Source: an uncultured Candidatus Rokubacteria bacterium
GTDB taxonomy: Bacteria; Methylomirabilota; Methylomirabilia; Rokubacteriales; CSP1-6
Direction of reading: 5' to 3'
Length of the DNA: 64,000 nt
Assembly: GCA_963758635.1 (NCBI GenBank)
Contig: CAVWWD010000002.1
Coordinates: 64,001-128,000 of the forward strand
Shown: piece by piece, positions 9,255 to 49,960 of the stretch
Layout of the letters: every line of letters starts with the position of its first letter
Numbering within the stretch: position 1 is the first letter of the stretch
Made by a program: the position numbers and the translations under genes
The notes under the pieces: generated by a model
The model's database searches: none
Seen by the model: the letters and a program-made list of their open reading frames with translations, nothing else
Told to the model about the DNA's origin: nothing

Positions 9255-9323
9255 GCCGGCGTCACACAGCGTAGCGCCGGACGGCGTCCTCGTCCCACTC
9301 GATGCCCGCGCCCGGACGCTCGG
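9255..9323 (-). repeat. Diverged duplicate of the 3' end of the racemase gene (9458-9526)
   Basis: 69-bp direct repeat with 6 mismatches; both copies encode ERPGAGIEWDEDAVRRYAV*. Confidence 0.9.
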
Positions 9324-9464
9324 CCGCTGCCGGCGGTGGGTAACCGGCTATCGAGACTCGGCCTAGTCGAATGCCCCCTGGAAGTCCACGGCCGCGCCGA
9401 TCGGCTTACGGGCCGGCCGTAACAGGTCGGAGTGGGCGACCGTGTCGCGCGGCGCCCGCCGGCG

Positions 9465-10541
9465 TCAGACGGCATAGCGGCGGACGGCGTCCTCGTCCCA
9501 CTCGATGCCGGCGCCCGGGCGCTCGGGAATATGGGCCACGCCGTCCTTTACTCGCAGGGGCTCCCGCAGCAGCGGCGCCGCCCAGTCCATGTACTCCAGC
9601 CAGTGGCCCGTGGGGGTCACCCCGAGCAGGTGCACGCTGAACTCGGGGAAGAGGTGGCTCGACATCTCGATGCCGTGGGCGTGGGCGAGCGCGGCCGCGC
9701 GCAGCCAGCCGGTGACGCCGCCGATGCGCTGGACGTCCGGCATGACGAAGTCGAGCGAGCGCGCGGCGATGGCCCGCGCCATCTCGAACGTGTCGACCAG
9801 GTTCTCCCCGGTCTGGATGGGCGTGGCCACCTCGGCCGCGATGCGCGCGTAGCCCTCGTAGTCGTCGTGACGGATCGGCTCCTCGATCCAGTAGAGCCCC
9901 TCGCCGTCGAGGGCGCGCGCGCGGCGAAGCGCCTCGCTCACCGTGAGGCGCTGGTTGAAGTCGCACATGAGGATCGCGCCGTCGCCGATCCGCTTCTTCA
10001 CCGCGCGCACCGCGGCCAGGTCCTCCGCGAAGGCGTCACGGCCGACGCGGAGCTTGACGGCGCGGAAGCCCTCGCCGAGGAGCGCCTCCGCTTCGTCGGC
10101 CAGCCCGTCGACCGGCTGGATCCAGAGACCGGTGCTGTTGTAGGCCGGGATCGCCTTCGGCGCGCCGCCGAGCAGCGAGACGAGCGGGACCCCGCGCGCG
10201 CGGGCCAGCGCATCCCAGGCGGCCATGTCGAGCCCGGCCAGGGCCAGGCCCACGAGCCCCGGGCTATCCAGCAGCGCGAGCTGGCGCCGCAGCTTGGCCT
10301 CGATGTCGGCCGGCGCCAGGAGATCGCCCTTGACCATCTCGAACAGGCCCTGGGCGCACCCGACGATGGGGGCGAGCGCCCACGGCGCGAAGCCGAAGAC
10401 GTAGGAGCGTCCGGTGACGCCCTCGTCGGTCTCCAGGTCGAACAGCACGAGCGCCGCCCTGGCGATCGCGCCGCTGGCGCTGACCGGGGGCCGGCGGAAC
10501 GGCGGCAGCACGGCGCGGGCGCGGAGGGCGGAGAGCTTCAT
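9465..10541 (-). CDS. Mandelate racemase/muconate lactonizing enzyme (enolase superfamily)
   Basis: AVKLRVG, MCDFNQ, WIEEP, QTGEN, MPDVQRIGGVTGW and SSHL motifs. Confidence 0.93.
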   Translation of the reverse strand: MKLSALRARAVLPPFRRPPVSASGAIARAALVLFDLETDEGVTGRSYVFGFAPWALAPIVGCAQGLFEMVKGDLLAPADIEAKLRRQLALLDSPGLVGLALAGLDMAAWDALARARGVPLVSLLGGAPKAIPAYNSTGLWIQPVDGLADEAEALLGEGFRAVKLRVGRDAFAEDLAAVRAVKKRIGDGAILMCDFNQRLTVSEALRRARALDGEGLYWIEEPIRHDDYEGYARIAAEVATPIQTGENLVDTFEMARAIAARSLDFVMPDVQRIGGVTGWLRAAALAHAHGIEMSSHLFPEFSVHLLGVTPTGHWLEYMDWAAPLLREPLRVKDGVAHIPERPGAGIEWDEDAVRRYAV

Positions 10542-10560
10542 GGCACAGGGATCGCGTGCG

Positions 10561-12789
10561 CTATGACGCGAGGTGACGGATCGTCTGGGTGGCGCGCCGC
10601 AGCCGGCCGCTCACCTCGCGGGCGAGGCTGCCATGCAGGCTGATCGCGATGGTGGGGTGCTTCGCCTCGAGCTCGCGGAAGGCCGCCTCCGTCAGGACGA
10701 AGCACGTGAGCTCCTCGTCCGCGACGACGGTGGCCGAGCGCGGCGCGTGATCGAGGAGCGCGATCTCGCCGAGCACGGCGCCGGCGGAGACGCTGGCGAT
10801 CCGCGTGACGCGGCCGTCCGGCTCCCGCAGGTGCACGCTCGCGCGGCCGCGGGTGACGAGAAAGAGATCCGACTCCGTGGCGCCTTCGGCGATGACCACG
10901 TCGCCGGCCGCATAGCGACGGGTCTCCAGCGCGCCGCGAAGCGTGGCGCGGTCCGTCACGCTCAACCCCCGGAACACTTCCAGGTCCTCGATCTCGAGCG
11001 CGCTCGCGGCAGCGGGCCGATCGACGGCGTCGTCGCCCGCGGCGGCAAGGATCTGGTCCTCCGCCCACTCGACGGCCCGATCGCTGTCGGGAAACGGCTG
11101 ATCACCCGACCCCGGTGTCGTCACGCCAAGGTCGCGCAGCGTGCGCCACCACTGGCTGTGCTCGATCCGCCCGGCCAGGAGGAGATGGCCGCCGCGCGTG
11201 GCCAGATCCGCCTCGATCTGCGCGAGGAGCCGCCCCCCGGTGCCGTCCACGTCGGTCACGCGGCCGAGGTCGAGGACCAGGAAGCGCGCGCCTTCGGCCA
11301 CCGCACGGTCGACGGCGTCGGCCAGCCGCCCGACCGTCCCGAAGAAGATGGCGCCCTCCAGCTGGAGAACGTGAACGAGTCGCCCGTGCTCGGCCAGGAG
11401 GGCCCGCTGGCGCGCGCCGCGCTCGCGGCGCGACGGCACCGCGTCACCACGGTAGGTCCGCCGCACCAGCGAGCTGCTCATGCGCAGGATGAACAGCACG
11501 ATGGCAATGCCCGCGCCCAGGAGGACGGCGTGGACGATGTCGAGCACGATCGACAGGGTCGCGACCAGCAGGATCACGAAGAGGTCCAGCCCGAGGCTGG
11601 CGCGGCTCGCGACGCGACCCGACGCGAGCCGCCTGACGAGCTGGATCGTGGACGGATCGACGTGCTGGATGGCCACCACCATGATGACGGCCGAGAGCGC
11701 CGCCCGGGGCACGTGGCCGAGGACGGGCAGCAGGAGCATCGCGGCCGCGAGCACCGCGGCGGCGTTGACGAGAACGGACAGGGGGGTGCGCGCGCCGTAC
11801 GCGCGGTTGATGGCGCTCGGGCCCAGGTTGACGCCGCCCGTGATGCCCCCCGAGCTGGCCGCCGCCATGTTGGCGAGGCCCAGCCGCATGAGCTGCCCGT
11901 TCACGTCCGGGCGCGGATCCCCCGGGCGAGCGAGAAGCTGGGCGCACAGCAGCGCGTCGATCGACGCGATGATGGCGAGCCCCAGGCCTCCCGTCACCAC
12001 GACGGGCAGGATGTCGGTGACGCCGGGCTCCGCGACGAGCGCCCCGAACGCCCACAGGTTCCACGGCCCCGGCATCGCGGCCGGCGTTGGCCCGATCGAG
12101 GGGCCGAGCCAGGTCGAGAAGCCCAGGAAGGCCAGCGCGTGATGCGTGGCCGTGCCCGCGAGCAGCCCGGTCAGGAGCGGAGGCATCGCCGTGGTGACTC
12201 GCCGCGCCTGCCACATGACGGCCATGGTGACCAGCGTGACCGCCACGGACAGCGGCTTCGCCGAGCCCAGGTTCGGCACGACCTGGGCAAGGCGCGTGTG
12301 TGTCTCGTACCCCAGGACGTTGCCGAGCTGCACCAGGAAGAGCAGCAGCGCGGCCGCGTTCTGGAACCCCGCCATCACCGGCTGCGGCGTGTGCTTGATG
12401 AGCGTGCCGAGCCGCACGAGGCCGAACAGGGCCTGGAAGGCGCCCGCGACGAGGATGACCGAGAAGACGACGGCCAGCGTGTGCTCGACGTTGTGTGTCC
12501 GGATGATGGGCGCGGCGGAGTGCGCGAGCCCGAAGACGAGGGAGCCGAGGAAGAACGTGGTGACCACGCGCGGCGCGTAGAGGGTGTGCGTCCGGTCGCC
12601 CGTGGCCACGGACACGAGGCCCACGATGACGGCGGTGCACAGGCCCGCGAGCACCCCGTGCCCGAAGTACCCGTCGCCCAGCGCGACGAACGCGAACATC
12701 CCGAAGCCCATGGCCAGCGGGATGGCGAGGGCGGCGGACACCAGTCCGCCCACCACGTCGTTCCGGGCCCTCACGAGCCACGCACGCAT
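10561..12789 (-). CDS. SulP/SLC26 anion transporter with STAS and cyclic-nucleotide-binding domains
   Basis: Starts MRAWLVRARNDVVGGLVSAALAIPLAMGFG; STAS (LEGAIFFG, DVDGTG); CNB (LGEIALLDHAPRSATV); the ATG overlaps the upstream TGA. Confidence 0.92.
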   Translation of the reverse strand: MRAWLVRARNDVVGGLVSAALAIPLAMGFGMFAFVALGDGYFGHGVLAGLCTAVIVGLVSVATGDRTHTLYAPRVVTTFFLGSLVFGLAHSAAPIIRTHNVEHTLAVVFSVILVAGAFQALFGLVRLGTLIKHTPQPVMAGFQNAAALLLFLVQLGNVLGYETHTRLAQVVPNLGSAKPLSVAVTLVTMAVMWQARRVTTAMPPLLTGLLAGTATHHALAFLGFSTWLGPSIGPTPAAMPGPWNLWAFGALVAEPGVTDILPVVVTGGLGLAIIASIDALLCAQLLARPGDPRPDVNGQLMRLGLANMAAASSGGITGGVNLGPSAINRAYGARTPLSVLVNAAAVLAAAMLLLPVLGHVPRAALSAVIMVVAIQHVDPSTIQLVRRLASGRVASRASLGLDLFVILLVATLSIVLDIVHAVLLGAGIAIVLFILRMSSSLVRRTYRGDAVPSRRERGARQRALLAEHGRLVHVLQLEGAIFFGTVGRLADAVDRAVAEGARFLVLDLGRVTDVDGTGGRLLAQIEADLATRGGHLLLAGRIEHSQWWRTLRDLGVTTPGSGDQPFPDSDRAVEWAEDQILAAAGDDAVDRPAAASALEIEDLEVFRGLSVTDRATLRGALETRRYAAGDVVIAEGATESDLFLVTRGRASVHLREPDGRVTRIASVSAGAVLGEIALLDHAPRSATVVADEELTCFVLTEAAFRELEAKHPTIAISLHGSLAREVSGRLRRATQTIRHLAS

Positions 12790-14027
12790 CAGGAGTAGAC
12801 GGCCTTCCCCGTGCCCGCCGCCCCGGTGGCCTTCACCTCGCGCACCGCCGCTCCGAGGTCGGCCAGGTATTCCTCGAGGACCCCCGCGTGCACGGGGGTG
12901 ATCATCAGGTGGATGCCGCGGGGCTCCCGGATGCGGCCCGGCCACCAGCCGCGGGCGGTCAGCCGGTCCGCCACCGCGTGGATGTCGTAGCCCTGCGCCC
13001 CGATGCCCACGGCCCACAGGTCGGGCTCGCCCCACACGTGCAGGCCCGGATCGACGCCGCCGAGCGCCTCGAGCAGGCTGCCCCGCGTCCGCATCACGGT
13101 TTCCGCGATGCGCAGGTAGCCGCGCTCGCCCAGGTGCTGCAGCACGGCCCACGCCGCGGCGATGGCGCCGCCGGGGCGCGTCCCCACGAAGGTGTGTGTG
13201 CTGTAGAGCCCGGACGGCCACCGGTCGAAGTCGTACCGCCCGGCCGCCTGGTGCTCGGCGGTGCGGAACAGCACGACGGAGGCCCCCTTGGCCGCGTAGC
13301 CGGACTTGTGGACGTCCACGGAGACCGACGTCACCCCCGGCACGCGAAAGCCGAACTCCGGCACCGGGAAGCCGAGCCGCCGCACGAAGGGCGCCAGGAC
13401 GCCGCCCACGCACGCGTCGACGTGCAGCCACAGCCCGCGCGCCGCCGCCAGCTCGCCCGCCGCGGCGATCGGATCGATGACGCCCAGCGAGTACGCCGGC
13501 GCCGAGACGTAGCACATGACCGTGCGCGGGCTCACCGCCGCGGCCAGCGCCTCGACGTCGGCGCGGAAGTCCGGTCCCGTGGGCACGCGGACGACCCGCA
13601 GCCCCAGGTAGTGCGCCGCCTTGTCGAGCGCGGGGTGGGCGGAGAACGGCGCGACGACCTCCGGCACGGCGACGTCGGGCCGATGTCGTCGCGCCCACTC
13701 GCGCGCCGCGTGCACGGCGCAGAAGATGCTCTCGGTGCCGCCGGTGGTCATGTGGCCGGCGACGGACTCCACCGATCCCACGAGATCGGCGACGATCCCG
13801 ACCACGTCGCCCTCCATCCGCCGGAGGCTCGGGAACGCCCGAAGGCCGAGCCCGTTCTCCGTCATGAAGAGCCCGTGCGCCTGCCGGACGACCTCCTCCA
13901 CCTCGTCGTCGGCATGCCACACGTACGCCGCGTGCCGGCCTCGGCGCCAGTCGAGGTCGTCGCGCTTGAGCTCGCGCATCTCGCGCTCGAGGTCCTTCCA
14001 GTCACGTCCCTCCGCGGGCAGCGGCAT
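12789..14027 (-). CDS. PLP-dependent group II decarboxylase/sphingosine-1-phosphate lyase-like protein
   Basis: MTTGGTESI, SAHPALDKAA, WLHVDACVGG, SVDVHKSGY (PLP Lys) and GTRPGG motifs. Confidence 0.9.
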   Translation of the reverse strand: MPLPAEGRDWKDLEREMRELKRDDLDWRRGRHAAYVWHADDEVEEVVRQAHGLFMTENGLGLRAFPSLRRMEGDVVGIVADLVGSVESVAGHMTTGGTESIFCAVHAAREWARRHRPDVAVPEVVAPFSAHPALDKAAHYLGLRVVRVPTGPDFRADVEALAAAVSPRTVMCYVSAPAYSLGVIDPIAAAGELAAARGLWLHVDACVGGVLAPFVRRLGFPVPEFGFRVPGVTSVSVDVHKSGYAAKGASVVLFRTAEHQAAGRYDFDRWPSGLYSTHTFVGTRPGGAIAAAWAVLQHLGERGYLRIAETVMRTRGSLLEALGGVDPGLHVWGEPDLWAVGIGAQGYDIHAVADRLTARGWWPGRIREPRGIHLMITPVHAGVLEEYLADLGAAVREVKATGAAGTGKAVYS

Positions 14028-14048
14028 GGCGGCGCTGGATCAGCCTCT

Positions 14049-15275
14049 CTACAGCACGCCCTCGGCCTTGAGCGCGGCGATCTCCGCGGCGTCCATCCCG
14101 AGCCAGGCGCCCAGCACCTCCGCGCTGTGCTCGCCGAGGAGCGGCGAGGGCTTGATGCGGGGCGGCTTGCCGTCCACGCGCACCGGCCAGGCCGGCATCT
14201 TGAACGGCCCCTTCGGGTGCTCCATCACCTGCATGATGCCGCGCTCCTCGAACGACGGATCCTTCTGCAGCTCCATCGTGTCGAAGACGGCGCCGGCGGG
14301 CACGCCGACCCCGCTGACCAGCGCCATCGCCTCTTCCTTCGTGTGCTTGCGCGTCCACTCGCCGACGATCGCGTCCACCTCGGCCTCGCGCTCGAAGCGC
14401 GCGGCGCCGGTCGCGTAGCGCGGATCGTCGATCAGATCCTCGCGCCCGATCAGCCGCATCAGCCGGCCCCAGTGCTCGGGGTTGCCGCGGCTGGTCGTGA
14501 TGTAGACCCAGTCGTTCGGGCCGCCGGGATGGCACGGGTACAGGCCTGAGGGCGAGTTGTTGCCGCCGGCGGTCTTGCCGCCGCGGCGCGGCGCCGCCTT
14601 GCCGGTGCGCGCCTGCGCGGCGAAGCAGGTCCGCATGTAGTGGAGCATCGCGTCCTGCATGGCGACCTGGAGACGCTTGCCCTGGCCCGTCCGCTGGCGC
14701 TCGTACAGCGCGCCGAGGATGGTCACGGCCATCAGCATGCCGGTGCCGGTGTCGCCGAAGCTCGGGCCGGGCTTCACGGGAGGCCGGTCGGCCTCGCCGG
14801 TCACGCTGATCATGCCGCCGGCGGCCTGCGCGATCATGTCGAAGGCCAGCCCGCTCTCGTACTTGCTGCCCGTGCCGAACCCCTGGATCTGGCAGAAGAT
14901 GATGCCGGGGTTGATCTTCTTCACCTCGTCGTAGCCGAGGCCGAGCCGCTCGATCGTGCCCGGCGCCATGTTCTCGACCGTGATGTCCGCCTTCTTCAGC
15001 ATCTCTTTCACCACGGCGAGGCCACGCGGCGACTTGAGGTTGATGGCGAGCGACTTCTTGTTGGCGTTGAACATGTGGAAGTACCACGGGTCGTCGTCGG
15101 GCTTGCCCGGGCGCAGCCGCCGCCCCGGATCGCCGGTCTTCGGGTTCTCGATCTTCACCACCTCGGCCCCGAGCCAGGCGAGCGCCTCCGTGCAGGACGT
15201 GCCCGCCTCGAACTGGGTGAAGTCGACCACTCGGACACCGGCGAGACTCTGGAGGTCCTGGCTCCTGTCGCTCAT
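14049..15275 (-). CDS. Class III CoA-transferase (CaiB/BaiF, formyl-CoA transferase-like)
   Basis: LAGVRVVDFTQFEAG, NANKKS, ENMAPG, FDMIAQA and PLLGEHS motifs; start set at MSDRS after AAGGAG. Confidence 0.93.
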   Translation of the reverse strand: MSDRSQDLQSLAGVRVVDFTQFEAGTSCTEALAWLGAEVVKIENPKTGDPGRRLRPGKPDDDPWYFHMFNANKKSLAINLKSPRGLAVVKEMLKKADITVENMAPGTIERLGLGYDEVKKINPGIIFCQIQGFGTGSKYESGLAFDMIAQAAGGMISVTGEADRPPVKPGPSFGDTGTGMLMAVTILGALYERQRTGQGKRLQVAMQDAMLHYMRTCFAAQARTGKAAPRRGGKTAGGNNSPSGLYPCHPGGPNDWVYITTSRGNPEHWGRLMRLIGREDLIDDPRYATGAARFEREAEVDAIVGEWTRKHTKEEAMALVSGVGVPAGAVFDTMELQKDPSFEERGIMQVMEHPKGPFKMPAWPVRVDGKPPRIKPSPLLGEHSAEVLGAWLGMDAAEIAALKAEGVL

Positions 15276-15525
15276 CGTCGCTCCTTCGCGCCGTGGGCTG
15301 CTCGTTTCGTCCCCGTCCCCCGTGACCGACTCGACGCCGGGCGCCGGTGGGCCTCGGGGCACACGCCGGAGAGTCACCCTCCCGGCGATGATGACACGGT
15401 TCTCGTCAGCCATCGCGGCCAGACTCGCGCGCTCCGCGCTATAGTCGTCGAGCGCTCAAAGCCCTGGCGCCCGGTGCAGATGTTCGGCCCGTCAGTGGCG
15501 CGACGACACCTGGATGGAGGACCCC

Positions 15526-15740
15526 ATGACCCGGCGGGAACTGCGCACTCAGGGCGAGGCCACCCTCGCGGACCTCTTCGGATCGGACGCGCAGACGCGC
15601 GGCCTGGCGAACCTGCTGACCGAGGCGGTGTACGGGCTTGACGCAGACCGAGGTGGTGGAAGCGATCATCCAGACCGCGCCGGCCACCGGATTCCGCCGG
15701 CGCTCAACGCCCTGGGCGCCATCAGCGCCGTGTTCGGTAG
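15526..15740 (+). pseudogene. Carboxymuconolactone decarboxylase-family remnant with internal deletion
   Basis: RBS GGAGG then MTRRELRTQG...LLTEAVYG, joined out of frame to GLTQTEVVEAIIQTAP(A)TGF..PALNALGAISAVF; the central part is missing. Confidence 0.65.
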
Positions 15741-15839
15741 CGCCCGGGACGTGCGCTCCTCGGCGGGGGGCCTACCGAGGGAACCCATTCGACGACGTGG
15801 ACGAATGTCGTCGCTCTCCGGGGGCGAGGCCCGGGTTCC

Positions 15840-16307
15840 TCAGGAGGCGGCAGGCACACCGTCCCGAGGAGAAGGCCCTTTGGAACCGACCATGCGCGCC
15901 CTCGCGAGCCGCCCCGGGCGGACGATCACTTGCCACGAGTTGCCCAGGAAGACCATGGAGAGCCCGAGCAGGTTGAGCGCGATTGGCGTGATCTTCCCGG
16001 GCAACGGCGCATACACCCAGTACGCGAGGGTGCTCGTGGCCAGGAGTGGCACGAGGAGCAGAGCACGGGGCGGCCAGTGACGCTGCCATAGCCGAATGAG
16101 CGCTTCGCCCAGGTCGCCTTCGAGCCTCTTGTGGAGAACGAGCCATGACACCCACGCGGCCACGACCAGCGCGGGGAGCCATTGCTCCACCCACAGGGCG
16201 GACGTGACGAGCAGAAGCGTGCCGGCTCGCCGCCGGTGGCGGTCGTCGCTCACGGTCCCGGAGCGGATCATCGCGCCTGCGTGCTCGTCTCCATGCATCG
16301 CCGTCAC
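15840..16307 (-). CDS. Hypothetical membrane protein
   Basis: Several hydrophobic segments; 4-nt stop/start overlap (GTGA) with the upstream mlaC-like gene. Confidence 0.55.
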   Translation of the reverse strand: MTAMHGDEHAGAMIRSGTVSDDRHRRRAGTLLLVTSALWVEQWLPALVVAAWVSWLVLHKRLEGDLGEALIRLWQRHWPPRALLLVPLLATSTLAYWVYAPLPGKITPIALNLLGLSMVFLGNSWQVIVRPGRLARARMVGSKGPSPRDGVPAAS

Positions 16308-16976
16308 GGGCCCTGATTGGCCCCGGGTATCAGGCGCGCTTCGCGAGTCCGCAGCCTGTCGAGCAGGGTGGCGAAGGAGGAGGTCTTGATGATCGAGCCG
16401 AACTGGCTCCGATAGCTGGAGACGAGGCTCACGTCTCCCGCGACGACGTCATAGACCGCCCATTGCCCCACGCTCTGCTGCAGGCGGTACTCGATCGGGA
16501 TCTCCGTGCGGCGGTCGGTGAGGATGCGAGAGTACACGCGGGCCGACGAGCCGTCGACGGACTCGCGCTGGAAGGTGATCGTCGCGAGACGGTAGCTCCC
16601 GATGACGGTCAGGTACGACCGCTCGAGGAGATTCGTGAAGAGGCGGACGAACTCCTCCTGCTCCTGCGGGGAACGGTCGCTCCAGTGCTGCGCCAGCGTC
16701 CGCCGGGCCATCTCGTTGAAGTCGAACAGCGTCACCGCGACCTCGCGCACCGCGGCTCGTCGCTCGTCCGTGTCCGGCTGCGACTTCACCAACGCCATCA
16801 CGCGTGAGACGGACGATTCGACCAGGCGTGAGCGGCCCTATCGACCCGGGGGAGGTGCTCTTCCCAGCGTCCTGGGCAGGGGCCGGCTGTGGTCCGAGCA
16901 CGAGGGCGGCCATCGCGATGGCGAGCAGGAGCAACCGGCGGACGTGACGCGCGAAGAACTCGGTGAGCTGGCTCAT
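16304..16976 (-). CDS. mlaC: MlaC/Ttg2D-like periplasmic binding protein, frameshifted (~16830)
   Basis: Signal peptide in one frame; FDFNEMARRTLAQHW...FTNLLERSY...W.VYDVV...VSLVSSYRSQF in another. Confidence 0.85.
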
Positions 16977-35451: not shown

Positions 35452-38400
35452 TCACGAACCCGTCCCGACGAACCTCCGCAGCACCTCGCAGAACTCCGCG
35501 GTCGCCGTGAAGATGGGCAGGTGTCCGCGCCCCTCGAATACGTGCAGGCGTGCGTCGGGAATGTGCTCGGCCAGGTGCCGGGCGGCGGCCATCGACACTC
35601 GCCGATCCTCAGCGCCGTGCAGGACCAGCGTCGGCACCTTCACCTGTCCCAGGATCGGGGTGACATCCAGCTCCGGGTCGGGCGTCCAGGTGCTCAGGAT
35701 GCTCTCGCGCGGCAGCCGGAGCAGGTTGCGCGCGAACTGCTCGGCCAGCTCGCCGGTATCCGGATCGCTGACGACCGTGGCCACGAAGTGCGGCATCGCG
35801 CGCTCCAGATCGCCGGCCTTCAGCGCGGCGCGGAAGCGGTCGTCCTCCTCGCTGGGAACGAGCGACATGCTGCCAGGTGTGATGTCGAGCGGCGTGCCGA
35901 TCAGCACGAGCCGCTTCACGAGCGACGGCGCCGCCACCGCCAGCCTGACCACCATGTTGCCACTCTTGGAGATGCCCATCGCGGTCACCGGACCGTGCCC
36001 GGCGGCCTCGATCACGGCCCCGATGTCGGCCGCATGGTCGGCGGTGGTGTACCCGGCCGGGATCGGGTCCGAGCGGCCGGTCCCACGCAGGTCCATCGTG
36101 ATGATCCGGAACTCCTGGCAGAGGTGCTCCAGCACGGGCTGCAGGATCTCCAGCCCGTAGATGATCGGGTTCGTGAACAGCAAGGTCTCGCCGCCCCCGC
36201 CGTGCTCGTAGAACGCGAGCGTCGCGCCGGCGCGGCGGGCGAGCCGGGGCCGGTGGAGCTTGTTGGCGATCCGGCCCCGATCCGCCTCGCTGGTCTCGAG
36301 CATCAGCGCGGCGTCGTAGCTCTCGTTGGCGCGGTCGAGGTCGCCTCGAAGGCTCACAACGTCCCCGAGCAGCTCGAGCGCGCGTGCCCGATCGCTCCCG
36401 GTGTCCCCGCCCTTCGCCGCCGCCTCCGCCGCCTGGCGACACGATGCCTCGGCCGTCGCATAGGCGAAGCGCTGCTTCGCGCGCTCGGCCGCGCGCATAC
36501 GGTAGTGGACCGCCCGGGTCCACGCCTCGCCGCGCTCACAGTGGTCGGCCAGGACTTCCCCGAACGTCGGGCAGCCGGTCGGCCTGGAGCGTCTCGATCG
36601 CGTCGGCGATCCGCCAATGCAGGCGCGGGCCGCGCCACGGCGGGAGCTCGGCGTACGCGACCTCGCGGATCCGCTCGTGCGGGAAGCCGAGACGCTCACC
36701 GACGCTGGTGAGGAGTCGCCGGCGAACGAGCTCTTCCACGGCCTGGGCCGTCGCGTCGTCATCGAGCTCCCCGACCCGGCGCAGCATCTCGAAGTCGAAC
36801 TCGCGGCCGATCGCTGCGGCCACGGTGAGCAGTGAGCGGCTGCGCTCGGTCAGACGCTCGATCCGGCGGCTGATCACGTCGCGAGCGCGTCCGGGCAGCG
36901 CTGGGCTCTCCGGCAGCCCGCGCTCCTGGATCTCGCGCATCATCTCCACGGCCACGAGCGGGTTGCCCTCGCTGGCCGTCCAGATCCGCTCGCCGAGCTG
37001 CGCGGCGCGAACCGCGAAGCTGGCAGGAGTCAGCATCGTGACCAGCGCGGCCGTGTCGCCTCGCGACAGCGGGGCCAGGCCGAGCGTGACGACGTGCCCG
37101 GCGCGCGCGAGATCGGCCAGGGTGTGGCGCAGGAGCGCGGCGTCGTCGAGCTCCTCTTCGCGCGCCGTGATCACGACGAGCAGTCGCTCGGTCGGAGCCC
37201 GGCGCGCCAGGTACGCGAGCAAGCGCAGCGTCAGCTCGTCGGCCCAGTGGAGGTCCTCCAGCACGACCAGGACCGGATCGCGGGCGGCCAGACCCTTCAG
37301 CAGCGCGGAGATGGCCTCGAACAGACGCCGGTAGTCCACGGTGGCCGGCAACAGCGGGGCGGTCGCCACCTCGGGCAGCAGGCGAGCGAGCTCGACGCGC
37401 CGGGCCGGGTCCAGCGCATCGAGGACCTCGCGGTCGAGCTCCGCCATGCGCAGGGCGTCGACGATCGGACCGAACAGGAGGATCCGATCGCTCTCGTACG
37501 CCCGGCCCAGCAGCACGCGCGCGTGGCGCCGGTGCGCGTGGGCGATCAGCTCCTCGGCCAGTCGGGTCTTGCCGATCCCCGCCTCGCCCAGGACCGCGAC
37601 GAGCCCGCCGCGGCCGGCGCAAGCGCGCTCGAGGGCGTCGCGGAGACGGGTCATCTCCGTCTCGCGCCCGATCAGTGGGGTCTCCGCCGGCCGCCCCTCC
37701 GGAGTGCGGCGTCCTCGCGCCGGCTTCGCCACGCGGGCGGTGCCGCCGCCAGTCCCTCGCTGGAGGATCTCCCGGTAGAGCTGCCGCGTTTCGGCCTCGG
37801 GCTCGACACCCAGCTCCCGCTGCACGACGTTCACACACTCCTGGTACTGCCGCAGCGCCGCCCCTCGCTGTCCGAGCTGCGCGTACAGCCCCATGAGCGT
37901 TCGGTGCACCGGCTCCTGGAGAGGATCGAGCGCGAGCAGCCGGTGCGCCGCGTCGATCGCGGGCTGGAGCTGTCCCGCCTGACGCTGCTGGGCGAGCAAG
38001 CGCGTCACGCCATCGAGCGCGCGGTCGTGCAGTCGCGCCCGCTCGCTCCGCAGCCAGGCCTCCCACGGCTCCTCCTTCACCGTCAGTCCGGCCAGGAGCT
38101 CGCCACGGTACAGCGCGGCCGCCTGGTCGAGCGCCCGAGGTGTGCCGTCGTCGAGCAGCCGCGTGAAGGTCGCCACGTCGAGATCGATCCGGTCGACGTC
38201 GACGGCCACCGTGTCGCCTTCGACGCGAAGGAGAGACGCCGAGGCGGCCAGAGCGCCGCCGGAGCTCGTACAGGGCGTGGCGCAGGCTGCCGCGAGCCTG
38301 CTCGTCGGGCATATCGCCCCAGAGCATCGCGGCCAGGTTCTCGCGACGATGGACACGACCGGGGTGCAGGACCAGGTAGGCCAGCAGGGCCTCGGCCTTC

Positions 38401-38480
38401 CTGGTGCGCACGCTCACGGCAGGGCCCGACTCCAGTCGAGCCTGAAACCCGCCGAGAAGGCTGAGATGCACTCGTCGCAT
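35452..38480 (-). CDS. SARP-type regulator (wHTH-BTAD-AAA ATPase-TPR) fused to a C-terminal alpha/beta hydrolase; frameshifts ~38255 and ~36570
   Basis: LSLLGGF..RKAEALLAYL, LDPLQEPVHRTLM, GEAGIGKT and EDLHWAD motifs; hydrolase DLRGTGRS, GISKSG, HGAED and GRGH. Confidence 0.9.
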
Positions 38481-38550
38481 GCGCTCCCTGGCCCGTGGGC
38501 CGATCGTATCACTCCCGGAACGGATCACTCCGTCCGGCCCGCCGTGATGT

Positions 38551-38578
38551 TTCACGACGCGTCGACGCTGCGTTCACG
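38551..38578 (+). promoter_or_regulatory. Three direct repeats with 11-bp period (TTCACG, TCGACG, TTCACG), SARP-type operator
   Basis: Repeats start at 38551, 38562 and 38573, between the divergent regulator and hydrolase genes. Confidence 0.55.
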
Positions 38579-39600: not shown

Positions 39601-41012
39601 CTAGCGGGCGGCGGAGACGGGCGCGACGGCGTCCAGCATCCAGCGGGCCATCGCCGTCACGCGGGCGTCCTCGTGCTGCTGGCCCATGATCTGGACGCCG
39701 ACCGGCAGGCCGCCGACCGCCAGCAGCGGCAGCGTGACCACGGGCGCGAACAGCATCGAGCTCGGCGCGTTGAAGACGAAGTCGCCGGTGGGACGCGGCG
39801 CCAGCGGCTGGCCCGGCACGTCGCCGGACCACAGGGGGGCGGGACCCGGGCACGACAGCGTGATGATCGCGTCGGCGAGGGGAGCCACCGCCTCGTGGCG
39901 AAGCTGCGCCGTGGCCCGCTCCATCAGGGCCGCGCGGTAGTCGTCAGGCGTCATGGTCTCGGCCTTCTCGAGCGTCGCCTTTGCCCGCGCGCTCACGCCG
40001 TCCGGATGCTGGTCGACCAGGTTGCGGATCGCCCAGCGGTTCTCCCAGCTCGTGATCGCGTTGCACACCGCGCGTCCGTCGGCGATGGCCTGCTCGAGAC
40101 TCTCGATCCACCGATGATCGCGGCGACCGAGGACCGTGACTCCGGTGCTCCGCAAACCTTCCAGCAGCGTTTCGAACGCCCGGCGGCTCGGGGCATCCAG
40201 CGCGGCCCAGCCCTCGGTCTCGAGGACGATCACTCGCTCCGGCTTCGCGGCGGCCGGCGGCGCCGGCGGTCCGAAGAGCCCGGGGCAGCCGCGATCGCCG
40301 CCGGCGCGGCGCGCGATCTCGATCGCCACCTGCCACATATCCTCGAGCGAGCCGGCGTGCACGCCATGCGTGCTCATGCTGGTCGCCTGGCGCTCCCCGC
40401 GGTTGATCCCCCCTGGGTCGGCTTGAGCGCCACGTTGCCGCAGTACGCGGCGGGCCGGATGATGGAGCCGCCCACCTGCGTGCCGATGGCGGCCGGCAGC
40501 ATCCGGGCGGCGACGGCCGCGGCCGAACCGGACGAGGAGCCGCCGGCGGTGCGCGCCGGATCGAAGGGATTCGTCGTGGGGCCGGGATGCGAGCCGCCCA
40601 GCTCCGCGGTCACCGTCTTGCCGACGATGACCGCCCCCGCCTGCCGCAGCGCCCACACCGCCGCGTTGTCCCGCTTCGGGAAGTTATCGCGATACGCGTC
40701 GCAGCCCATCTGCGTGGGCATGTCCTTCGTCTCGAGCAGGTCCTTGATGCCGATGGGCAGGCCGTCGATCGGCGAGCGCACGTGTCCGTCCTTCCAGCGC
40801 CTGGTGCTCTCGTCCGCCGCCTCGCGCGCGCCGGCCAGGTTCAGCGTCACGAACGCCCGCACGACGGCCTCGCGCTCCCCGATCGTCTCGAGGCAGCGCT
40901 CCAGGTACGCGCGGGGCGTGTCGGAGCCGTCCCGGAAACGCGCGATGGCGTCGTGGAAGGTCAGCGCCCGGCACTCCCGGGGGTCGTAGGTCTTCGGTGC
41001 CGTGGTGATCAT
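39601..41012 (-). CDS. Amidase signature family protein, frameshifted in a homopolymer (~40410)
   Basis: [23 protein letters not shown] and [12 protein letters not shown] motifs. Confidence 0.92.
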
Positions 41013-41205: not shown

Positions 41206-44200
41206 GTGACTGATCGCCTGCCGATCTTGCTGCACTCCGCCTTGTACGCGGCGCTGCGCCGGCAGCAGCCCGAGCGCCGCTCTCGCTTCCGCCGTCTCGC
41301 CGACAGACTGGCCACCGGCCGCTGGGGCGGCGGCACCCGCGTCAAGAAGCTCCGCGGCGTGGCCAGGCCGGTGTTCGAGGCGCGCCAGGACGGCGGCGAT
41401 CGCGTGCTGTTCACCTTCGCGCGCTCGGCGGCGGCCGAGGAGAACGCGCTCGTCACGTACCTCCAGGTGTGGGACCTCGTGCCCCACGACGACGTCTCGG
41501 CGGCGGCGGCACGCATCAACCGCGCGGCGGAGGCGGAGTTCCTCGACTACGACGTGCTGGAGTCCGAGACGACGGACGCCCCGCCTCCCCACGCCGGCAT
41601 CACCTTCGACGAGGTCCCACCCGTCGCCGCGGGCCAGGCCGCCGGCCTGCTGGAGCTGATGCTGCCGCCCGAGGACTTCCGCCCCGCCGCCCGCGAGGAG
41701 ATCGAGGGTGGGGTGCGGTGGTACCTCCTGCCCGAGCGCCTCCTCGTGGACGACCCGCGATGGCAGGGCCTGATGGACGAGGACAGCGACGAGCTCGAGC
41801 TGAAGCTCACCGCCGAGCAGTACGCGGTGGTTCGGGCGGCGGGCCCGCTCTTGCTCTCGGGCAGCGCGGGCAGCGGCAAGACCACGATCGCCGTCCACCG
41901 GATCGCCGCGGCCGCCGCCACCGGCGCCGCGCCCCTCCTGTACGTGACCTACAGCGGATGGCTCCGGGACCACGCTCGGCGCCTCTACCGGGCGCTGTGC
42001 GCGTGCCGCGGCGACGAGCCCGGCGCCGCCCCGGACTTCCTCACGATGGAGGAGCTGTACCGCTCGCTCCTCGGGCCCGCGGGCGACAGCGTCGAGCGGC
42101 TGGCCGACTACGCGGAGTTCGCGCGGTGGTACGCGGGCGGCTTCCGCCGTCGCGACGCCGCGCTGGCCTGGGAGGAGATCCGGAGCATCGTCAAGGGCGC
42201 GTGCCTGGACGACGGCCGCGACCTCCTCCGCCGGGACGAGTACGAGACGCTCGGCAGGAAGCGGGCTCCGCTCTTCGTGGCCGAGCGGCCCCGCCTGCAC
42301 GAGGTGGCCCGCCGCTGGCAGGAGCACCTGCGCGCGGCGGGGCGCGCGGACGAGATCGATCTGTGCCGGAGGGCGCTGACCGCGCATCGTGCGCGCCCGC
42401 GCGCCTGGAGCCACGTGGTGTGCGACGAGGCGCAGGACCTCGCCGAGCTGCAGGTCGAGCTGCTGCTGCGGCTGCACGCAGGCCCCCGGCTCGAGGGGCT
42501 GTTCCTGGCCGGCGACCCCCAGCAAGTGATCAACCCCAGCGGCTTCCGGTGGGCCGAGGTGCGCACCGCCATCCGCGAGCGCGCCCGCGGAGGCGCGCGG
42601 CCGGTGGACATCACGTCGCTCCGGCGGAACTTCCGTAGCGTGCGCGGCGTGGTCGAGCTGGCGAACGCGCTCCTCGCCCTCAAGCGCGAGCGCACCGGCC
42701 GGAGCGACGGCGACGAGACCGAGGAGGCGGCGGTCGTCGGCCCGACGCCCATCCGCGTGGAGGGCGGCGAGGAGGAGCTTGCCGCCGCCGTGGCCGGGTT
42801 CGGCCCTCGATGCGCCGTGCTGGTGGGCTCGGAGGACATGCGCGGCCGGCTGCAGGCGCTGCTCGACACCACGCGCATCTTCACCGTCCAGGACGCCAAG
42901 GGGCTGGAGTTCGACGTGGTCGTGCTCTGGGGCCTGGTCGCCGCGGATCCGGACCCGTGGACCCGGCTCCTCGATGCCGCCCTCGACCTGAGAGAGGACC
43001 CGGCGTGCCGGCGCGCGCTCCATCACCTTTACGTGGCGGTCACGCGCGCGCGCCGCCACCTGGCCGTGCACGAGCCGCCGGGGGCGCCGCCCGTCTGGAC
43101 CAGCCGGTGGCTCGGAGCGCGGCTCGACTCCGAATCGTCGGCCTCGCTCGCGCGACTCTTCGTCCGGACGGCGGCGCCCGCCGAGTGGCTCGGCGAGGCC
43201 ACGTACTTCCTCGAGCGCGGCCGCCATCGCCAGGCCGCGGAGTGCTTCCGCCGGGCTGGCGAGGCGCGGCGCGAGACGGAGTGCCTGGCCTTGCACCACG
43301 AGCAGGCGGGCGACGGCGCGGAGGCGGCGCGGCTCTGGCTGGACCTCGGCGAGCGTGCGCGGGCGGCCCGCTGCCTCGAAGCATCCGGCGCGTGGGTGGA
43401 GGCGGGGCGCCTGTGGATGGAGGAAGGCGACGTGGCCGCGGCGCGCCGCTGCCAGGCCCGCGCCGCGGAGCGCACCCGCGACTGGGCGTCGGCCGGCGAC
43501 GCCTGGGAAGCGCTCGGCCAGTGGGCGGATGCCGCCCGGTGCTGGTCGAACGGCGGTCAGCGTGGCCGGCAGCTCCGGTGCCTCGGCGAGGGCGCCGAAG
43601 CGGAGCAGCGCTGGGCGGACGCCGCGCGGCACTGGGAGGAGGCTGAAGCCTGGGCCCGGGCCGACCGCGTGCTGGCAGCGCGCGGGGCGAGAGGCGGACG
43701 CGTCGCGCACGGAGGCGATGGGGCACGAGAGCGCCGGGCGCTTCGCCGACGCCTCGCGCGCCTGGCGCGCGGCCGGGAACGAGGCCCGCGCACGCCGGAC
43801 CGGTGCGACCGCCGCGGAAGACGATGAGCGCTGGGAAGACGCCGCCGCCCTCTGGGAGGATCTGGGTGAGATGCCGGCCGCGGCACGCGCGTGGCGACGC
43901 GCTGGCCGACTACGGGAGGCGGCGCTCTGCGAAGCCCGGATGCACGAGGCCGCGGGCCGGCACGCGCGCGCGGCGGAAGCGCTCGAGGCCGCGGGTGAGC
44001 TGACCGCCGCGGCCACGGCGTGGCGCCGCGCGCACGAGGCCAGCCAGCCTCCCTCGAAGACCGTCCCGCTCACGCTTCCGCCCGACGCGGCCCACCGGTG
44101 GACGGAGGGCGGCCGGCCCGCGCGGCTTCTCGCCAGGACCGCGGCGGCGGCCCGCTCGCACGCCGCACGCGACGCGCGCGTCCGAGGGCTCGCCTGCGCG

Positions 44201-45076
44201 GTGGCCGCGGCCGAGAGCGCCGGCAGGCTCGACGAGGCCGAGGCGCTGTGGACCACCCTCGGCGATCCGCACCAGGCGCTGCGCTGCCAAGTCCAGCGCC
44301 TCGAGCGCGACGGCGCGCTCGGAGAGGCCGCCGCCCTGCTGGAGCGTCACGGGCTGTTCCCGGCCGCGGGCCGAGCCTGGCGCGCCGCCGGCGACACGGC
44401 GGGCGTGACTCGATGCGAAGCCCGGCGGCTCCAGAAGAAGCGGCGCTGGCAGGAGGCGGAGGCGCTCTGGCTCTCCATCGGCGCCCAGGCCGAGGCGGCC
44501 CTCTGTCGCGCCCGAGAGATGGTGCTTCGCGGAGACTACCGAGCCGCCGCGGATGCCTTCGCCCAGGCGGGCCAGCCGGGGATCGCCCTCGAGCTCTCCG
44601 TGCTCGCCGCCCAGCAAGAGGGAGACTGGGACGGAGCGGTGGCCGTCGCGACGACCGGTGGCCGCACCGATCTCATCCGCCGCATCCGGAAGGCTCAGCA
44701 GGCCGCAGCCGCGCAGCCAGGTCCGCGACAGGCCGCGTCGGATGAACGCCGGGGAGACGGCAAAGAACACTCGGGCCGCCGACCCCCGCGAGCCCGAAAC
44801 GCCGCGCCGGCCCGCAGGTCGAAGTCGATGCGGGCGCTGTCTCGATCGAGACACCACCGGCGGGCCGGCGCGCGCGCCGCGGCTGCCTCCGACATCGAGA
44901 GGCTGGTCGCCACCGTTCGGCGACACCCGGGCGCGCGAAGCGAAGACCTCGCCCGCCTCTCGGGGATCCAGGGGCCGCGTCTGGCCGCGTTGCTGCGCGC
45001 GGCGGTGGCCGCCGGACACGTGGTCCGGTCCGGAGCCACGCGGGGCACGCGCTACTGGCCCCGGAGAGAGGGCTGA
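41206..45076 (+). CDS. RelE-like N-domain + UvrD/SF1 helicase + long TPR-like array + C-terminal HTH (TRANK1-like); one frameshift ~43665
   Basis: Helicase motifs GSAGSGKTT, VCDEAQD, AGDPQQ, RRNFRS, AKGLEFD and LYVAVTRAR; many W..AA..W...G repeats; C-terminal RSEDLARLSG...GATRGTRYW. Confidence 0.88.
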
Positions 45077-45264
45077 TCGCGCATTCTACAAGTGGCGTAC
45101 GCCCTTCAGGTGCGTGCCGATCGCGCCAGCCGGATCGGCTCGGAGGAGCGGTGGCCGAGTGATGCGTGGCCGGCGCGTTCTGCTGCTGCTGGGGACGGTG
45201 GCGTCAGAGGCCCGCCGGCTCGCAGCGCGCCGCGAGGAGATGGTGGCCGGTGCGGTCGTCGGTG

Positions 45265-45390
45265 CGAGAAGCAGGCCGCCTACTCCGTCGCTACCGCGGG
45301 CAAGATCGGCATCCGGAAGTCACGGCTTCCGGCAGGCCGCTCCGGCACGCCGGGCCGAACGCTTCTACGTCGAAGCCCGTGACGTCATCA
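45265..45390 (+). repeat. Degenerate copy 1 of a gene-like segment also found at 49766-49960
   Basis: CGAGAAGCAGGC.GCCTACT..GT.G.TACCGCGGGCAAGATCGGCATCCGGAA and ACGCTTCTACGTC are shared by both copies. Confidence 0.8.
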
Positions 45391-46073
45391 CCCGCGAGCG
45401 GCCACGGCCGGTCGCTCTGAGGTATCGGCCAGGCCCATGGCCAAGCCCGCCAGCCTCATCAGCAGGATGGTGACGGAGGCGGCGCCTGCCGCGCTTCTGT
45501 TCGGGCTAGTTCCTTAGCAGCGACAGATGATCAGGCAGGACGCGGCGACCGCCGCGACGATCGCCACCAGCTGCGGCTCATTTCCCTCTCGCATGGGCAC
45601 GCACTGAGGCGCATGCAGCGCGAGGCAGTCCCGCCAGGCAGTCGGGTGCGTGCGGTCAGGCGTTCAGGATCTCCAGGCCGCGTGAGCATGCCCGCGACGT
45701 TTGTCGGGTTGGTGCCGACCGCGGGTCCCGTGACTTCCCATCGGACATCAACCACTGTCGTTGCCTGGCGCAGGACCGTCGCCTGGACCGATATGACGCC
45801 GGCTTTGGGGACAGCCCTGACACAGCGTCCCGTTGATCTGGAATGGCCCCTGCTCCGTGACGAACAGTCCCAGCCATTCGTCTCGCATCGCGGTCTCCGG
45901 CGCGTAGGTAGCGAGATAGAAAGGCACGCCATCAGGCTTCATGGCTGCGCCGAACCGCGAGACAAGGCGAGATCCTGACGGCGTAGTGGTTGAGGCGAAG
46001 ACCCGTGCCATCTCTCGCACGCGCGCAATCTGTTCGTCCAGCAACGGGAAGACCGAGGGCGGGCCACCGTCAG

Positions 46074-49000
46074 TCAGTTGGCATGACATGGGGGCAACTC
46101 CTTTGCCCGCGTCGAAACCGTGCGCGGGCTCCGGACGATCGGCGGTCTAAGGTTAGGGGGCGTGTGGGGAACTGCTGCCAGGGATTCCTCGGCTTCGGCA
46201 AGCCAGCGGCTCATCTGCAGGGTACGGTACAGTTCCCCCGCGGCCGAGATGCTCCTGGCCGCGTCGTCCGCCCTTCCCGCCGCAAGCTCCGCGTGGCCGA
46301 GGCCGAGGCGGCAATGGGCCAGCAACGGATTGAGCTCCAGCGACTGGGCCAGCTCGATGGCCCGTGTAAAATGTGACTCGGCTTCCTCGGGGTTCTTGTC
46401 GGCCAAGCAGGCGAGCCCTAGGGCTCGCTCGGCGTATCCTTCGTATCCGAGCTCCCCGTGCTGTCGAGTACGCTCGAGCGCGCCGCGCGCAAGGTCCAGA
46501 CCTTCGGCCACGCGGCCGGCCAGCAGATACGCCTCGGCCAGACGCGCCTCCCAGACCGACTTACCCGCCTGGATCCTCACGTCAGTGCTCTGCTGGACGG
46601 CGAACGACAGGAGCGGCAGGCCCTCGTCGATCCTCCCGATCAGGACGTATCCGTATCCAAGGTGGGAGCTGGCCACACTCACCATGTGCGGCAGGTCCTG
46701 TGCCCGACACGTCTCGAGGGCTACCTCGGCGAGCGCAATAGCGGACTCGATGGAGCCTTGTCGAAGTAGCGCGAAAGCCCAGGAGGAGGTATTGGTGTGG
46801 ATAAGATCGAAGGGGCCGCCGAAGGAGTCCAACAGCAGCCGTGCCTCGCGTCCGTAAAAGCTCGCCTGATCGAACAATCCCAGCTCGGCAGCGGCAATGA
46901 CCATCCAGCCGCGAGAGATCACGGACGGAAGGCCGGGCATTCCGTACCGCTCGCGCGCTCGCGGTCCAGCGAGATAGTCGACGTTGTGCTCGAGTACGCC
47001 GAGGGCGGCGCGATTGCGCCCGCCCGCATGGAGGGCTTGGGCGAGGTGAATACGGGGGACGACCTGAAGATCCGGCCGATCCAGGCGCGCGGCCAGCGGG
47101 ATCGCGTGCTCGGCATGCTCTATCGACTGGACGAGCTGACCGGAGAGATACGAGTGCCCGGCTCGGAAGCCCGCGATGCGTCCCAGCCGGAACTCATCGT
47201 TGATGCGCTCGGCGAGGGCCTCCGCTTGGGTCAGGCACTGGCCGACCTGCTGCAGATCCTGCAACGCGAGGAACGCGGACCGCAGATCCAGCAGGCTGTC
47301 GATGGCGTGCTGGATCGTGTCGACGGATTCCGGCAGATGAGCCAGCGCATCCAGCGTTTGCTGCGCGTACGCAACCGCCTCGCGGATGGCCGGCCTGCCG
47401 AGCGCCTTCTCGGTCGCCAGCCGCAGATAGGTGACCGCTCGCTCCCAGCGCTCTCCGCGCACCGCGTGATGGCTGAGGCGATCCACATGCTCAGGCAGCC
47501 GATCGGCGTAGACCTTCTCGATCGCCGCCAGGATCGCAGCGTGCAGCAGCGCCGGCGGTCCTGCAGAACGCTGCCGTACGCGACCTCGTGGGTCATCGTG
47601 TGGGTGAAGGTTAGCTCGAGTACCGGGAAGAGGTTCGCCTCGTAGAGGAACTCCGCGCTTCGAAGCAGGGCGACCTGCTGGCGGATTTCGGCGTCGGGAA
47701 GACCGCTCACCGCCCGCAGAAGCTCGAAGGTACGTCCTTGCCGATGACGGCCGCGGACTGCAGCAGTCGCTTCGTGTCGGGAGGCAGGCGGTCGATCTGG
47801 GCCGCCAGGACCGCTTGCACGGTCTCGGGCACCTGGATGCTCTCCGAGGCGAATGGACGAGTTGATGGCGCCCTGACTCTCCGGCCAGGGCGCGCGTCTC
47901 GAGAAGAGCACGGACGCTTTCCTCGAGGAAGAACGGATTGCCGTCGGTGCGTGCAATCAACGCGCGCTTGACCGCATCGAGACTAGGGTCGTTGCCGAGT
48001 AGCCCTTCGAGGAACTTCTGCGAATCCGCGGGCACGAGGGGATCCAGCCGGAGCTGGGTGGAGAAGGTACGCCCGGCCCAGGTGTGTTCGAAGTCCGGCC
48101 GGTAGTTCAGCAGCAGCAGGATATGCGCGTCGGACAGATGTTCGATGAGATCGTCTAGGAGCGCGAAGGTCTGCGGATCCGTGATGTGGAGATCTTCGAA
48201 GATAAGGCAGACCGGCTGCACGAGGCTCTCGCGGAGCAGGAGCGTCCTCGTGGCCTCGATCGGTGCGCTGGCGCCGCTCGCGCGGATCGAGGCGTTCGAA
48301 GGGGCTGCCCGCGGGAAGGGCGTCGAGCAGGGCCAGCAGTGGTGGCACGATGCGACGCAGACCCTCCTCGAGGGTGAGCACGATGCCCGTGACCTTCGCC
48401 TGTATGCTCCGGACATCATCGCGGCTATCGATCTTGAAATAGCCGCGTAGGAGCTCGACGAGCGCGTGGTAGGCCGCCAGTCGCCCCTGGGACAGTGAGG
48501 CGCTCTCAAGTACGAGCCACTTCTGATGCGCCTGTCCGCGCACGAATTCGTAGAAGAGGCGAGACTTGCCGACGCCGAGTTCCCCGATAACGGCCACGAA
48601 CTGGCGGTGCCCCGCGTGAACACGTTCGAGCGCCCGGGTCAGCTGTCGCATCTCGTCGGTGCGCCCGACGAATGGCGATAGACCCCGCGCGGCCGTCGCC
48701 TGCAGGCGCGAGCGCACCTTGATCGCCCCGGTAAGTTCGTAGACGCTCAGGGCGCGGTTGAGTCCCTTCACCGGCACAGGCCCCAGTGCTCGAACCTGGA
48801 TGTACCCCTCGCTCAGGCGAAAGGTATCCGACGTGAGCAGAGTCGTCCCAGGCCGCGCCAGCTGCTCCATCCGTGCAGCGAGGTGGGTCGTTTCGCCGAC
48901 CGCGCTGTAGTCCATGCTCAGATCAGTGTGGACGGATCGCACGACAACTTCACCCGAGTTGAGACCGACCCGGATCTGGAGATCGAGACCTTCCGTGCTT

Positions 49001-49545
49001 CGTACATGCTCGGCGTATGCGGCGACGCGCTCGTGCATTCGGAGGGCGGCGTAACAAGCGCGGATGGCATGACATACTCGTGGGCCACCGGGGCGCCGAA
49101 GGGCGCCATGATGCCGTCGCCCATAACCTGGTTTACCAGCCCTTGTACTCGGGAACCGCCTCGACGATTCGCTCCGCCACGGCATCAAGGAATCTGCGTG
49201 CCTCCTCGGGGTCGCGGTCGGTGAGCATCTCGATGGGGAGAGCCGTTGAGATCCAGCGAACAGGACGGTAACTTGCTTGCGCTCCCCTTCTAGCAGGGCC
49301 AGGCGTATTGAGGAGTCCTTCGACCTGATAGGGGGGAGGGACCTGCTGGGCGATCTGCACCTTCAGTCGGTCGGCCTGGTCGTGCTGAGCCGAAGCGCGG
49401 TGCCGCAGGCCTTGCAGTAGCGATACGAGAAGGCATAGCTTGTCCGGCAGCGCTCGCAGGTCGTGACGAGTTTTGCGCCGCAATCGGGGCAGAAGCTCGC
49501 CTCCGCGGGCGCTCGCTTGTGGCAGCCCGAACAGCGCGTGGTCAT
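46074..49545 (-). pseudogene. Double zinc ribbon + class III adenylate/guanylate cyclase + AAA ATPase + TPR (STAND), multiply frameshifted
   Basis: CSGC..CPDC..CERC..CKAC, MGDGIMAPFGAP, IRVGLNSGEV, GELGVGKS, FEDLH and DGNPFFLEE motifs; about 7 frame breaks; visibly lower GC3. Confidence 0.88.
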
Positions 49546-49765
49546 TGCGGTCTTACTGCGCCCTTTGCGCTTCATCCGGAGCTAGTTACGCCTCCGATCG
49601 GTCGATGCTGGACGGCGCGCGGGCGGACTCTCCCGTGAACCAAGCTGAGACTAGACGTGAACCAGAGGGTGGTCAAGAGGGCCGGGCGCCCGCCTTCCGC
49701 GCCACCACGATCGCCCGTGGATCAATCTCGACCATTTGAACGCGGCGGAGATGGACGCCCTTCGT

Positions 49766-49960
49766 CGAGAAGCAGGCGGCCTACTACAAGCAGGCGGCCT
49801 ACTACGTGGATACCGCGGGCAAGATCGGCATCCGGAAATGGCGTGGTTTCGGCTGGGCACTTCCGCCGAGGCTGCTTCCGGTAGTTCGCTTCCCGCCGGC
49901 GGCTTCGGGCAGGCCGACGGACGCTTCTACGTCAAGCCTCGTACCACCGTCATCAACACC
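49766..49960 (+). repeat. Degenerate copy 2, with an internal 18-bp tandem duplication
   Basis: AAGCAGGCGGCCTACTAC at 49770-49787 and 49788-49805. Confidence 0.8.

Follow-up and report, generated by a model that had tools for sequence, protein, structure and literature searches.

A RelE–helicase–solenoid protein from a Rokubacteria genome: a candidate single-gene defence system with TRANK1-like relatives in eukaryotes

Architecture of the gene and its protein

The window analysed here is a stretch of 64,000 nucleotides from the genome of an uncultured Candidatus Rokubacteria bacterium (assembly GCA_963758635.1, contig CAVWWD010000002.1, positions 64,001 to 128,000). It contains a gene for a protein in which a RelE-type nuclease fold, a superfamily 1 (SF1) helicase and a helical solenoid follow each other in one chain (Table 1). 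Two overlapping reading frames, 41206–43827 and 43355–45076, encode the two halves of this protein. Scoring possible junctions against six intact homologues places the frame break at 43662/43664 and affords a protein of 1290 residues. This result confirms the original prediction, made from the sequence of the window, of a RelE–helicase–solenoid–helix-turn-helix protein of about 1290 residues with one frameshift, except that the terminal winged helix is weakly supported.

Table 1. Features of the RelE–helicase–solenoid locus and its flanks (window coordinates)
Feature	Position	Strand	Basis and remarks
RelE–helicase–solenoid gene	41206–45076	+	1290 residues when read across one extra base
RelE/YoeB-fold domain, residues 1–104, basic	41206–41517	+	Model, fold search, Atlas, conservation, charge
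Acidic linker, residues 105–200	41518–41805	+	Charge; forms a single rigid unit with the RelE core in the model
SF1 (UvrD-like) helicase with WEEIRSIVKG and LGRKRAP signatures	41806–43080	+	Pfam, motif conservation
Connector and Trp/Ala helical solenoid (TPR, clathrin or IFT-like)	43081–44700	+	Spans the frame change; 3' limit approximate
Extra base causing the frameshift	43661–43664	+	Absent from contigs of runs X1, X2 and X4; most likely arose in assembly
C-terminal winged helix (weakly supported) and stop codon	44864–45076	+	Confined to the closest clade
Amidase split across two frames, divergent upstream neighbour	39601–41012	-	Pfam Amidase positions 3–173 and 181–444 in two open reading frames; not part of the system
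Zinc ribbon–adenylate cyclase–AAA–TPR gene, frameshifted, downstream neighbour	46074–49581	-	Has many paralogues; lies outside the system

At 43661 or 43664, contigs from three runs (two of DNA, one of RNA) are one base shorter than the window. These contigs represent two studies and are 97–99% identical; a fourth run does not cover the site. The genes rpoB and rpoC in the same assembly are also each split across frames (G000:C3:347817-355877). Because three runs lack the base and these two genes are broken as well, the frame break at 43661–43664 is most likely an assembly error. The many indels in this assembly caution against reading any frameshift in this genome as decay. Among the 32 closest homologues, 28 are encoded by single open reading frames of 1197–1334 residues. 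The frameshift, together with a near-identical record (P0040) whose frame is broken at other positions, could suggest that this copy is a pseudogene. Given the contigs without the extra base, the split rpoB and rpoC, and key residues that are all intact, we consider this exceedingly improbable.

The N-terminal module had been predicted to adopt a RelE/ParE fold. A structure model and a fold search return the RelE/YoeB fold for residues 1–104, the Atlas agrees, and the closest folds are ribosome-dependent mRNA interferases. At the level of the model, this confirms that the domain belongs to the RelE/ParE (BECR-fold) superfamily. Five residues, Lys47, Glu58, Arg60, Arg66 and His94, are invariant in all of 65 diverse relatives and present in 98–100% of the covered rows of 145 sequences. 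The spacing of Lys47, Arg60 and Arg66 equals that of Glu46, Arg59 and Arg65 in YoeB, and a histidine follows the last strand, as does His83 of YoeB, according to the passages on these residues in the YoeB report (PMC3814384). Mapped by this spacing rather than by a printed structural alignment, the conserved polar residues expected of the RNase branch of the superfamily are in place. The invariant site is likely an RNase site of the Arg-Arg-His type, which would be common to YoeB, RelE, YafQ and HigB. The general-base glutamate of YoeB is replaced by lysine.

The RelE domain carries a positive net charge in 72 of 72 relatives. The linker that follows has a net charge of -17 in this protein and is negative in 71 of the 72; residues 1–200 modelled together with a predicted template modelling score (pTM) of 0.88. 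We surmise that this linker may serve as a built-in inhibitor of the nuclease. No antitoxin gene adjoins the gene in the window, and the loci of relatives contain no conserved small partner gene. Assignment as a type II toxin–antitoxin module was rejected since a cognate antitoxin gene was not found in the flanks.

The helicase contains intact SF1A motifs I–VI and matches the UvrD family in Pfam (E = 4e-14). Its two family signatures are absent from all of 81 other SF1 helicases. The solenoid matches the IFT144 (IFT144/WDR19) repeats in the PDB (E = 1e-12), and TPR, clathrin or SNAP-like Pfam matches occur in 20 of 30 distant relatives. This region may function as a sensor. The C-terminal segment points weakly to a winged helix: the best Pfam match is EutK_C (E = 1.6e-6), five of eight members match HTH_24, and winged-helix entries in the PDB match with E = 0.005–0.05. 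This segment is limited to 25 of 119 listed homologues. Membership in the Avs group of STAND NTPases was also considered and rejected, because NACHT and nSTAND3 matched only with E = 0.02–0.03, below the cut-off.

Distribution and gene neighbourhoods

A profile of the first 200 residues matched 228 clusters at 50% identity, and a UvrD helicase follows the N-domain in all 30 long matches scanned, out of 150 listed. The gene occurs mostly in soil and rhizosphere metagenomes. Among the named members are Acidobacteriota, cyanobacteria, Spirochaetia, Bacillus and a Heimdallarchaeota archaeon; the cyanobacterium Crinalium PCC 9333 carries an intact copy (WP_015205634.1). The core of the protein is fixed and the solenoid end varies, with ankyrin repeats, canonical TPRs, a winged helix, fusion to a TPR partner or tandem duplication; the distant relative P0259, for example, ends in ankyrin and TPR repeats. 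The distribution of the gene is patchy. In searches that scored four candidates per genome, many of the genomes being incomplete, it was found in two of 251 genomes of its own phylum and in two of 301 genomes of a class sample. One Thermoanaerobaculia family (Acidobacteriota) has it in 35 of 81 genomes. Two of 72,556 plasmids contain a match; 50,697 phage records and the viral contigs contain none. The Heimdallarchaeota protein falls into a deep clade (P0189, P0191, P0248, P0249), two members of which have an additional N-terminal OB-fold nucleic-acid-binding domain. A related helicase group (P0291-P0293, P0302; 1,500–1,800 residues) has a different N-terminal region.

In the Thermoanaerobaculia family the gene fills a slot flanked by selB and argE in eight of eight further loci. 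A TPR gene lies beside it, separate or fused, and three of the eight loci contain tandem duplicates. In these three (L145, L146 and L147, at about 7,700–16,600) each duplicate is fused to a 450-residue TPR protein, encoded in related genomes by a gene of its own further downstream. One record (P0285) joins the C-terminal part of SelB to the RelE–helicase protein, probably as an assembly artefact of the selB-adjacent slot. Three gene-negative loci were read; two have an empty slot with the operon intact and the third is rearranged. The pair selA–selB also lies downstream of the gene in L084. A conserved housekeeping context, which the original prediction had named as evidence against a defence module, was thus found in part: the slot is fixed in one Acidobacteriota family, but it can be empty.

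The closest clade resides among changing metabolic genes with scattered toxin–antitoxin genes; HicA, VapB, ParE-like, HEPN and PIN genes occur near several loci. Clear defence neighbours were found in three of 26 loci, a count for which a background rate is absent. A complete, separate Gabija pair lies within 4 kb of the gene in L152, a complete Menshen system lies 1.6 kb from the copy on a Crinalium plasmid, and the copy on a Euhalothece plasmid is located beside NERD–UvrD genes, VapC and cas1–cas2. On the latter plasmid (L156, 14837-23698), two NERD–UvrD genes flank three small kinase-like genes next to cas1–cas2, possibly a further defence module. We found no partner gene common to the family in the 26 loci, and neither ArmA–C nor GajA partners in the same operon in the window or these loci. 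PADLOC contains no model that fits beyond generic UvrD motifs.

The flanks in the window itself do not support the conflict hotspot that had been proposed for them. In 45077-46146, where a remnant of an antitoxin gene had been suspected, 11 reading frames gave no match to an antitoxin family at E <= 1. The supposed decayed STAND gene is the zinc ribbon–adenylate cyclase–AAA–TPR gene of Table 1, which belongs to a widely expanded set of paralogues: 11 of the 12 contigs of the genome contain matches to it (25 tblastn pieces). Its frameshifts are in line with the number of errors in this assembly. A 50-base direct repeat (92% identical; 45269-45318 and 49788-49837) brackets a stretch of lower GC content that contains this gene. 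The match between the window and contigs of near-identical strains ends at 45081-45089, so the DNA to the right of the RelE–helicase gene may be strain-variable. Further upstream (35452-38555, minus strand) lies a BTAD–AAA–TPR gene that apparently ends in an alpha/beta hydrolase and is split over three frames.

Relation to TRANK1-like proteins

The original prediction also noted a resemblance to animal TRANK1. A search with the helicase only (residues 195–700, N-domain excluded) among proteins longer than 1,528 residues produced 18 matches, four family members and 14 distant proteins. Seven of the 14 come from named eukaryotes: a mollusc, two Trebouxia, Allomyces, Gyrodon, Carpediemonas and Polarella. 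The Dreissena protein XP_052214395.1, named "TPR and ankyrin repeat-containing protein 1-like", matches the helicase with E = 3e-23. The distant matches score 120–246 bits against a profile of the helicase core, with Dreissena at 246, compared to at most 95 bits for the 81 other SF1 helicases, including the UvrD of this genome. The mollusc protein contains WTEIMSFIKG and LGRKRAP and shares the W-EI-S-IKG and LGRKRAP motifs, patterns that occur in none of the 81 other helicases; each strict pattern is matched by two to five of 12 long matches. The search returned no vertebrate sequence, human TRANK1 included, and the link rests on other eukaryotic TRANK1-like proteins.

Beyond the original claim, a RelE-like stretch precedes the helicase in these proteins as well. 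The N-domain profile detects it 172–235 residues before Walker A in seven of the 14 distant matches, with scores of 9–29 bits compared to 4.9 for the best of 700 shuffles. One further protein matches in part, and six do not match. Equivalents of Arg66 and His94 are kept in each of the seven stretches. A profile–profile comparison gave 97%, a value that is not independent since selection of the stretches had relied largely on the same profile. No Pfam model marks such a stretch ahead of a TRANK1-like helicase. In the Dreissena protein the distance from this stretch to Walker A is 235 residues, and the helicase leads into a solenoid.

The TRANK1-like proteins share with the bacterial family the order of RelE-like stretch, helicase and solenoid. 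They differ in that they are 1,800–3,300 residues long, begin with ankyrin repeats or an extra Upf1-like helicase, and conserve the RelE-like site only partly, whereas the bacterial protein begins directly with the RelE domain and has no counterpart of the N-terminal ankyrin/TPR region. The second, Upf1-like helicase lies upstream in the fungal and dinoflagellate proteins P0289 and P0301. Two quick trees, for which HelD-like and similar sequences served as outgroups, join the family and the TRANK1-like proteins in one clade with a Shimodaira–Hasegawa-like approximate likelihood ratio (SH-aLRT) support of 100; the second of these omits P0289, P0300 and P0299. A third tree with UvrD, AddA-like and long-branch rows did not resolve the grouping (support 24). 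A common origin of the eukaryotic TRANK1-like proteins and the bacterial cassette is likely, whichever way the descent ran. Apart from one older paper that possibly mentions such fusions, the literature searched yielded no report of a stand-alone, solenoid-bearing RelE–helicase protein or of the link to TRANK1.

Candidate mechanism and alternatives

Several known systems resemble this protein in part. Cami1 (CARF–RelE) is a sensor-gated RelE in one chain, as proposed here. Type II toxins depend on a separate antitoxin gene; in the present protein helicase and solenoid would be the gate. The helicases GajB of Gabija, UvrD, PcrA and HelD have the SF1A motifs in common with ours and lack the family signatures; the match to any PADLOC helicase model is at most 75 bits, compared to 882 for a true GajB, and the GajA partner is absent. 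Single-gene systems of the Avs/NLR-like type and the nuclease–helicases Nhi and Hna share the layout of effector, NTPase and repeat sensor in one chain. In contrast to the STAND ATPase of Avs, the NTPase of our family is an SF1 helicase, and no PADLOC model for Avs, Nhi or Hna matched any of 18 family members or close relatives at E <= 1e-8. Closer relatives in design are ArmD of ARMADA type II (bioRxiv 10.1101/2025.09.15.676423) and a RelE–helicase fusion in the Tiamat type I-K neighbourhood (bioRxiv 10.64898/2026.09.30.754977). As the sections of these preprints concerned have it, both begin with a RelE-like domain followed by a helicase (UvrD-type in ArmD), and ArmD is required for the anti-phage activity of ARMADA, which spares the cell. 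Both are parts of systems of several genes, which also include a methyltransferase and further helicases, whereas none of the 26 loci contains such partners; the same sections describe no solenoid, and the comparison with ArmD is by description. RelE–helicase fusions in defence are already known, and the gene is not ARMADA, Gabija, Avs or a type II toxin–antitoxin pair.

We propose that the gene encodes a self-inhibited one-gene defence switch, gated by its helicase, that cuts mRNA once triggered; our confidence and our doubt in this model are evenly matched. The acidic linker would hold the basic nuclease shut, as an antitoxin would. Binding of a foreign protein or nucleic acid by the solenoid may lead to ATP-driven movement of the helicase on nucleic acid, which would free the nuclease from the linker. 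The freed RelE domain could then cut mRNA, probably at the ribosome, and stop translation and with it the invader. A defence role is plausible. The abortive-infection module of the original prediction stands as a layout; its role is unproven, with no PADLOC model and known anti-phage genes near only three of 26 loci. Two further observations weigh against defence: most of the 26 loci are ordinary gene surroundings, and in one Acidobacteriota family the gene is fixed among housekeeping genes, although that slot can be empty.

These same neighbourhoods suggest the main competing explanation, a translation stress or quality-control factor without a role against invaders. Here, helicase and solenoid would find stalled or damaged ribosome–mRNA complexes, and the RelE domain would cut the message. 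The slot beside selB and the selA–selB pair in L084 are consistent with this function, as are retention in 35 of 81 genomes of one family and in distant eukaryotes, the strict conservation of the core and the partial cover of the gene in metatranscriptome contigs, which is not proof of transcription. A quality-control factor should hardly be missed in 249 of 251 genomes of its own phylum, however, and the empty sites, the plasmid copies near defence genes and the variable solenoid ends also argue against it. We regard this explanation as unlikely, if still a serious contender. A non-suicidal enzyme that unwinds and degrades the RNA or DNA of the invader directly, with no arrest of the host, would account for nuclease and helicase in one chain and for the winged helix of the closest clade. 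Such an enzyme has parallels in the relevant sections of two reports, namely in ARMADA, where a RelE–UvrD protein takes part in protection without cell death, and in the weak activity of YoeB on naked mRNA (PMC3814384). Since the closest folds are ribosome-dependent mRNA interferases, and a long solenoid would suit sensing better than processive degradation, direct degradation seems quite unlikely. Finally, the basic toxin and acidic linker in one chain, the toxin–antitoxin genes near several loci and the two plasmid copies are reminiscent of a selfish, fused addiction module that stabilizes its own locus or plasmid. Such a module would not need a 1,300-residue helicase and should not be so rare on plasmids or missing from the phage records and viral contigs, and the gene is lost cleanly from its sites; we think this reading very improbable.

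Returning to the defence switch, a wider and more tentative proposal, toward which we are somewhat sceptical, is that the family is the prokaryotic counterpart of TRANK1. It would be an immune protein encoded by one gene, present in bacteria and in an Asgard archaeon at the least, whose RelE-type mRNA nuclease is controlled by the SF1 helicase together with a sensor formed by the solenoid. Eukaryotic TRANK1 would then be an RNase with a RelE fold that has gone unrecognized and that acts by shutting off translation. The relevant parts of two reports (PMC10269786, PMC6880163) list TRANK1 among interferon-stimulated genes. If the proposal is true, an ancient immune module would extend from bacteria to animals, and this could help to make sense of TRANK1, a gene induced by interferon and so far poorly understood.

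A RelE-type RNase fold just ahead of a TRANK1-like helicase gives testable biochemistry to a poorly understood eukaryotic gene family, and the bacterial form offers it as a single gene with five invariant residues. If the defence role is true, the family joins the short list of immune modules common to bacteria and animals. If not, it would add to RNA quality control a new factor that is coupled to a helicase and conserved across the domains of life.
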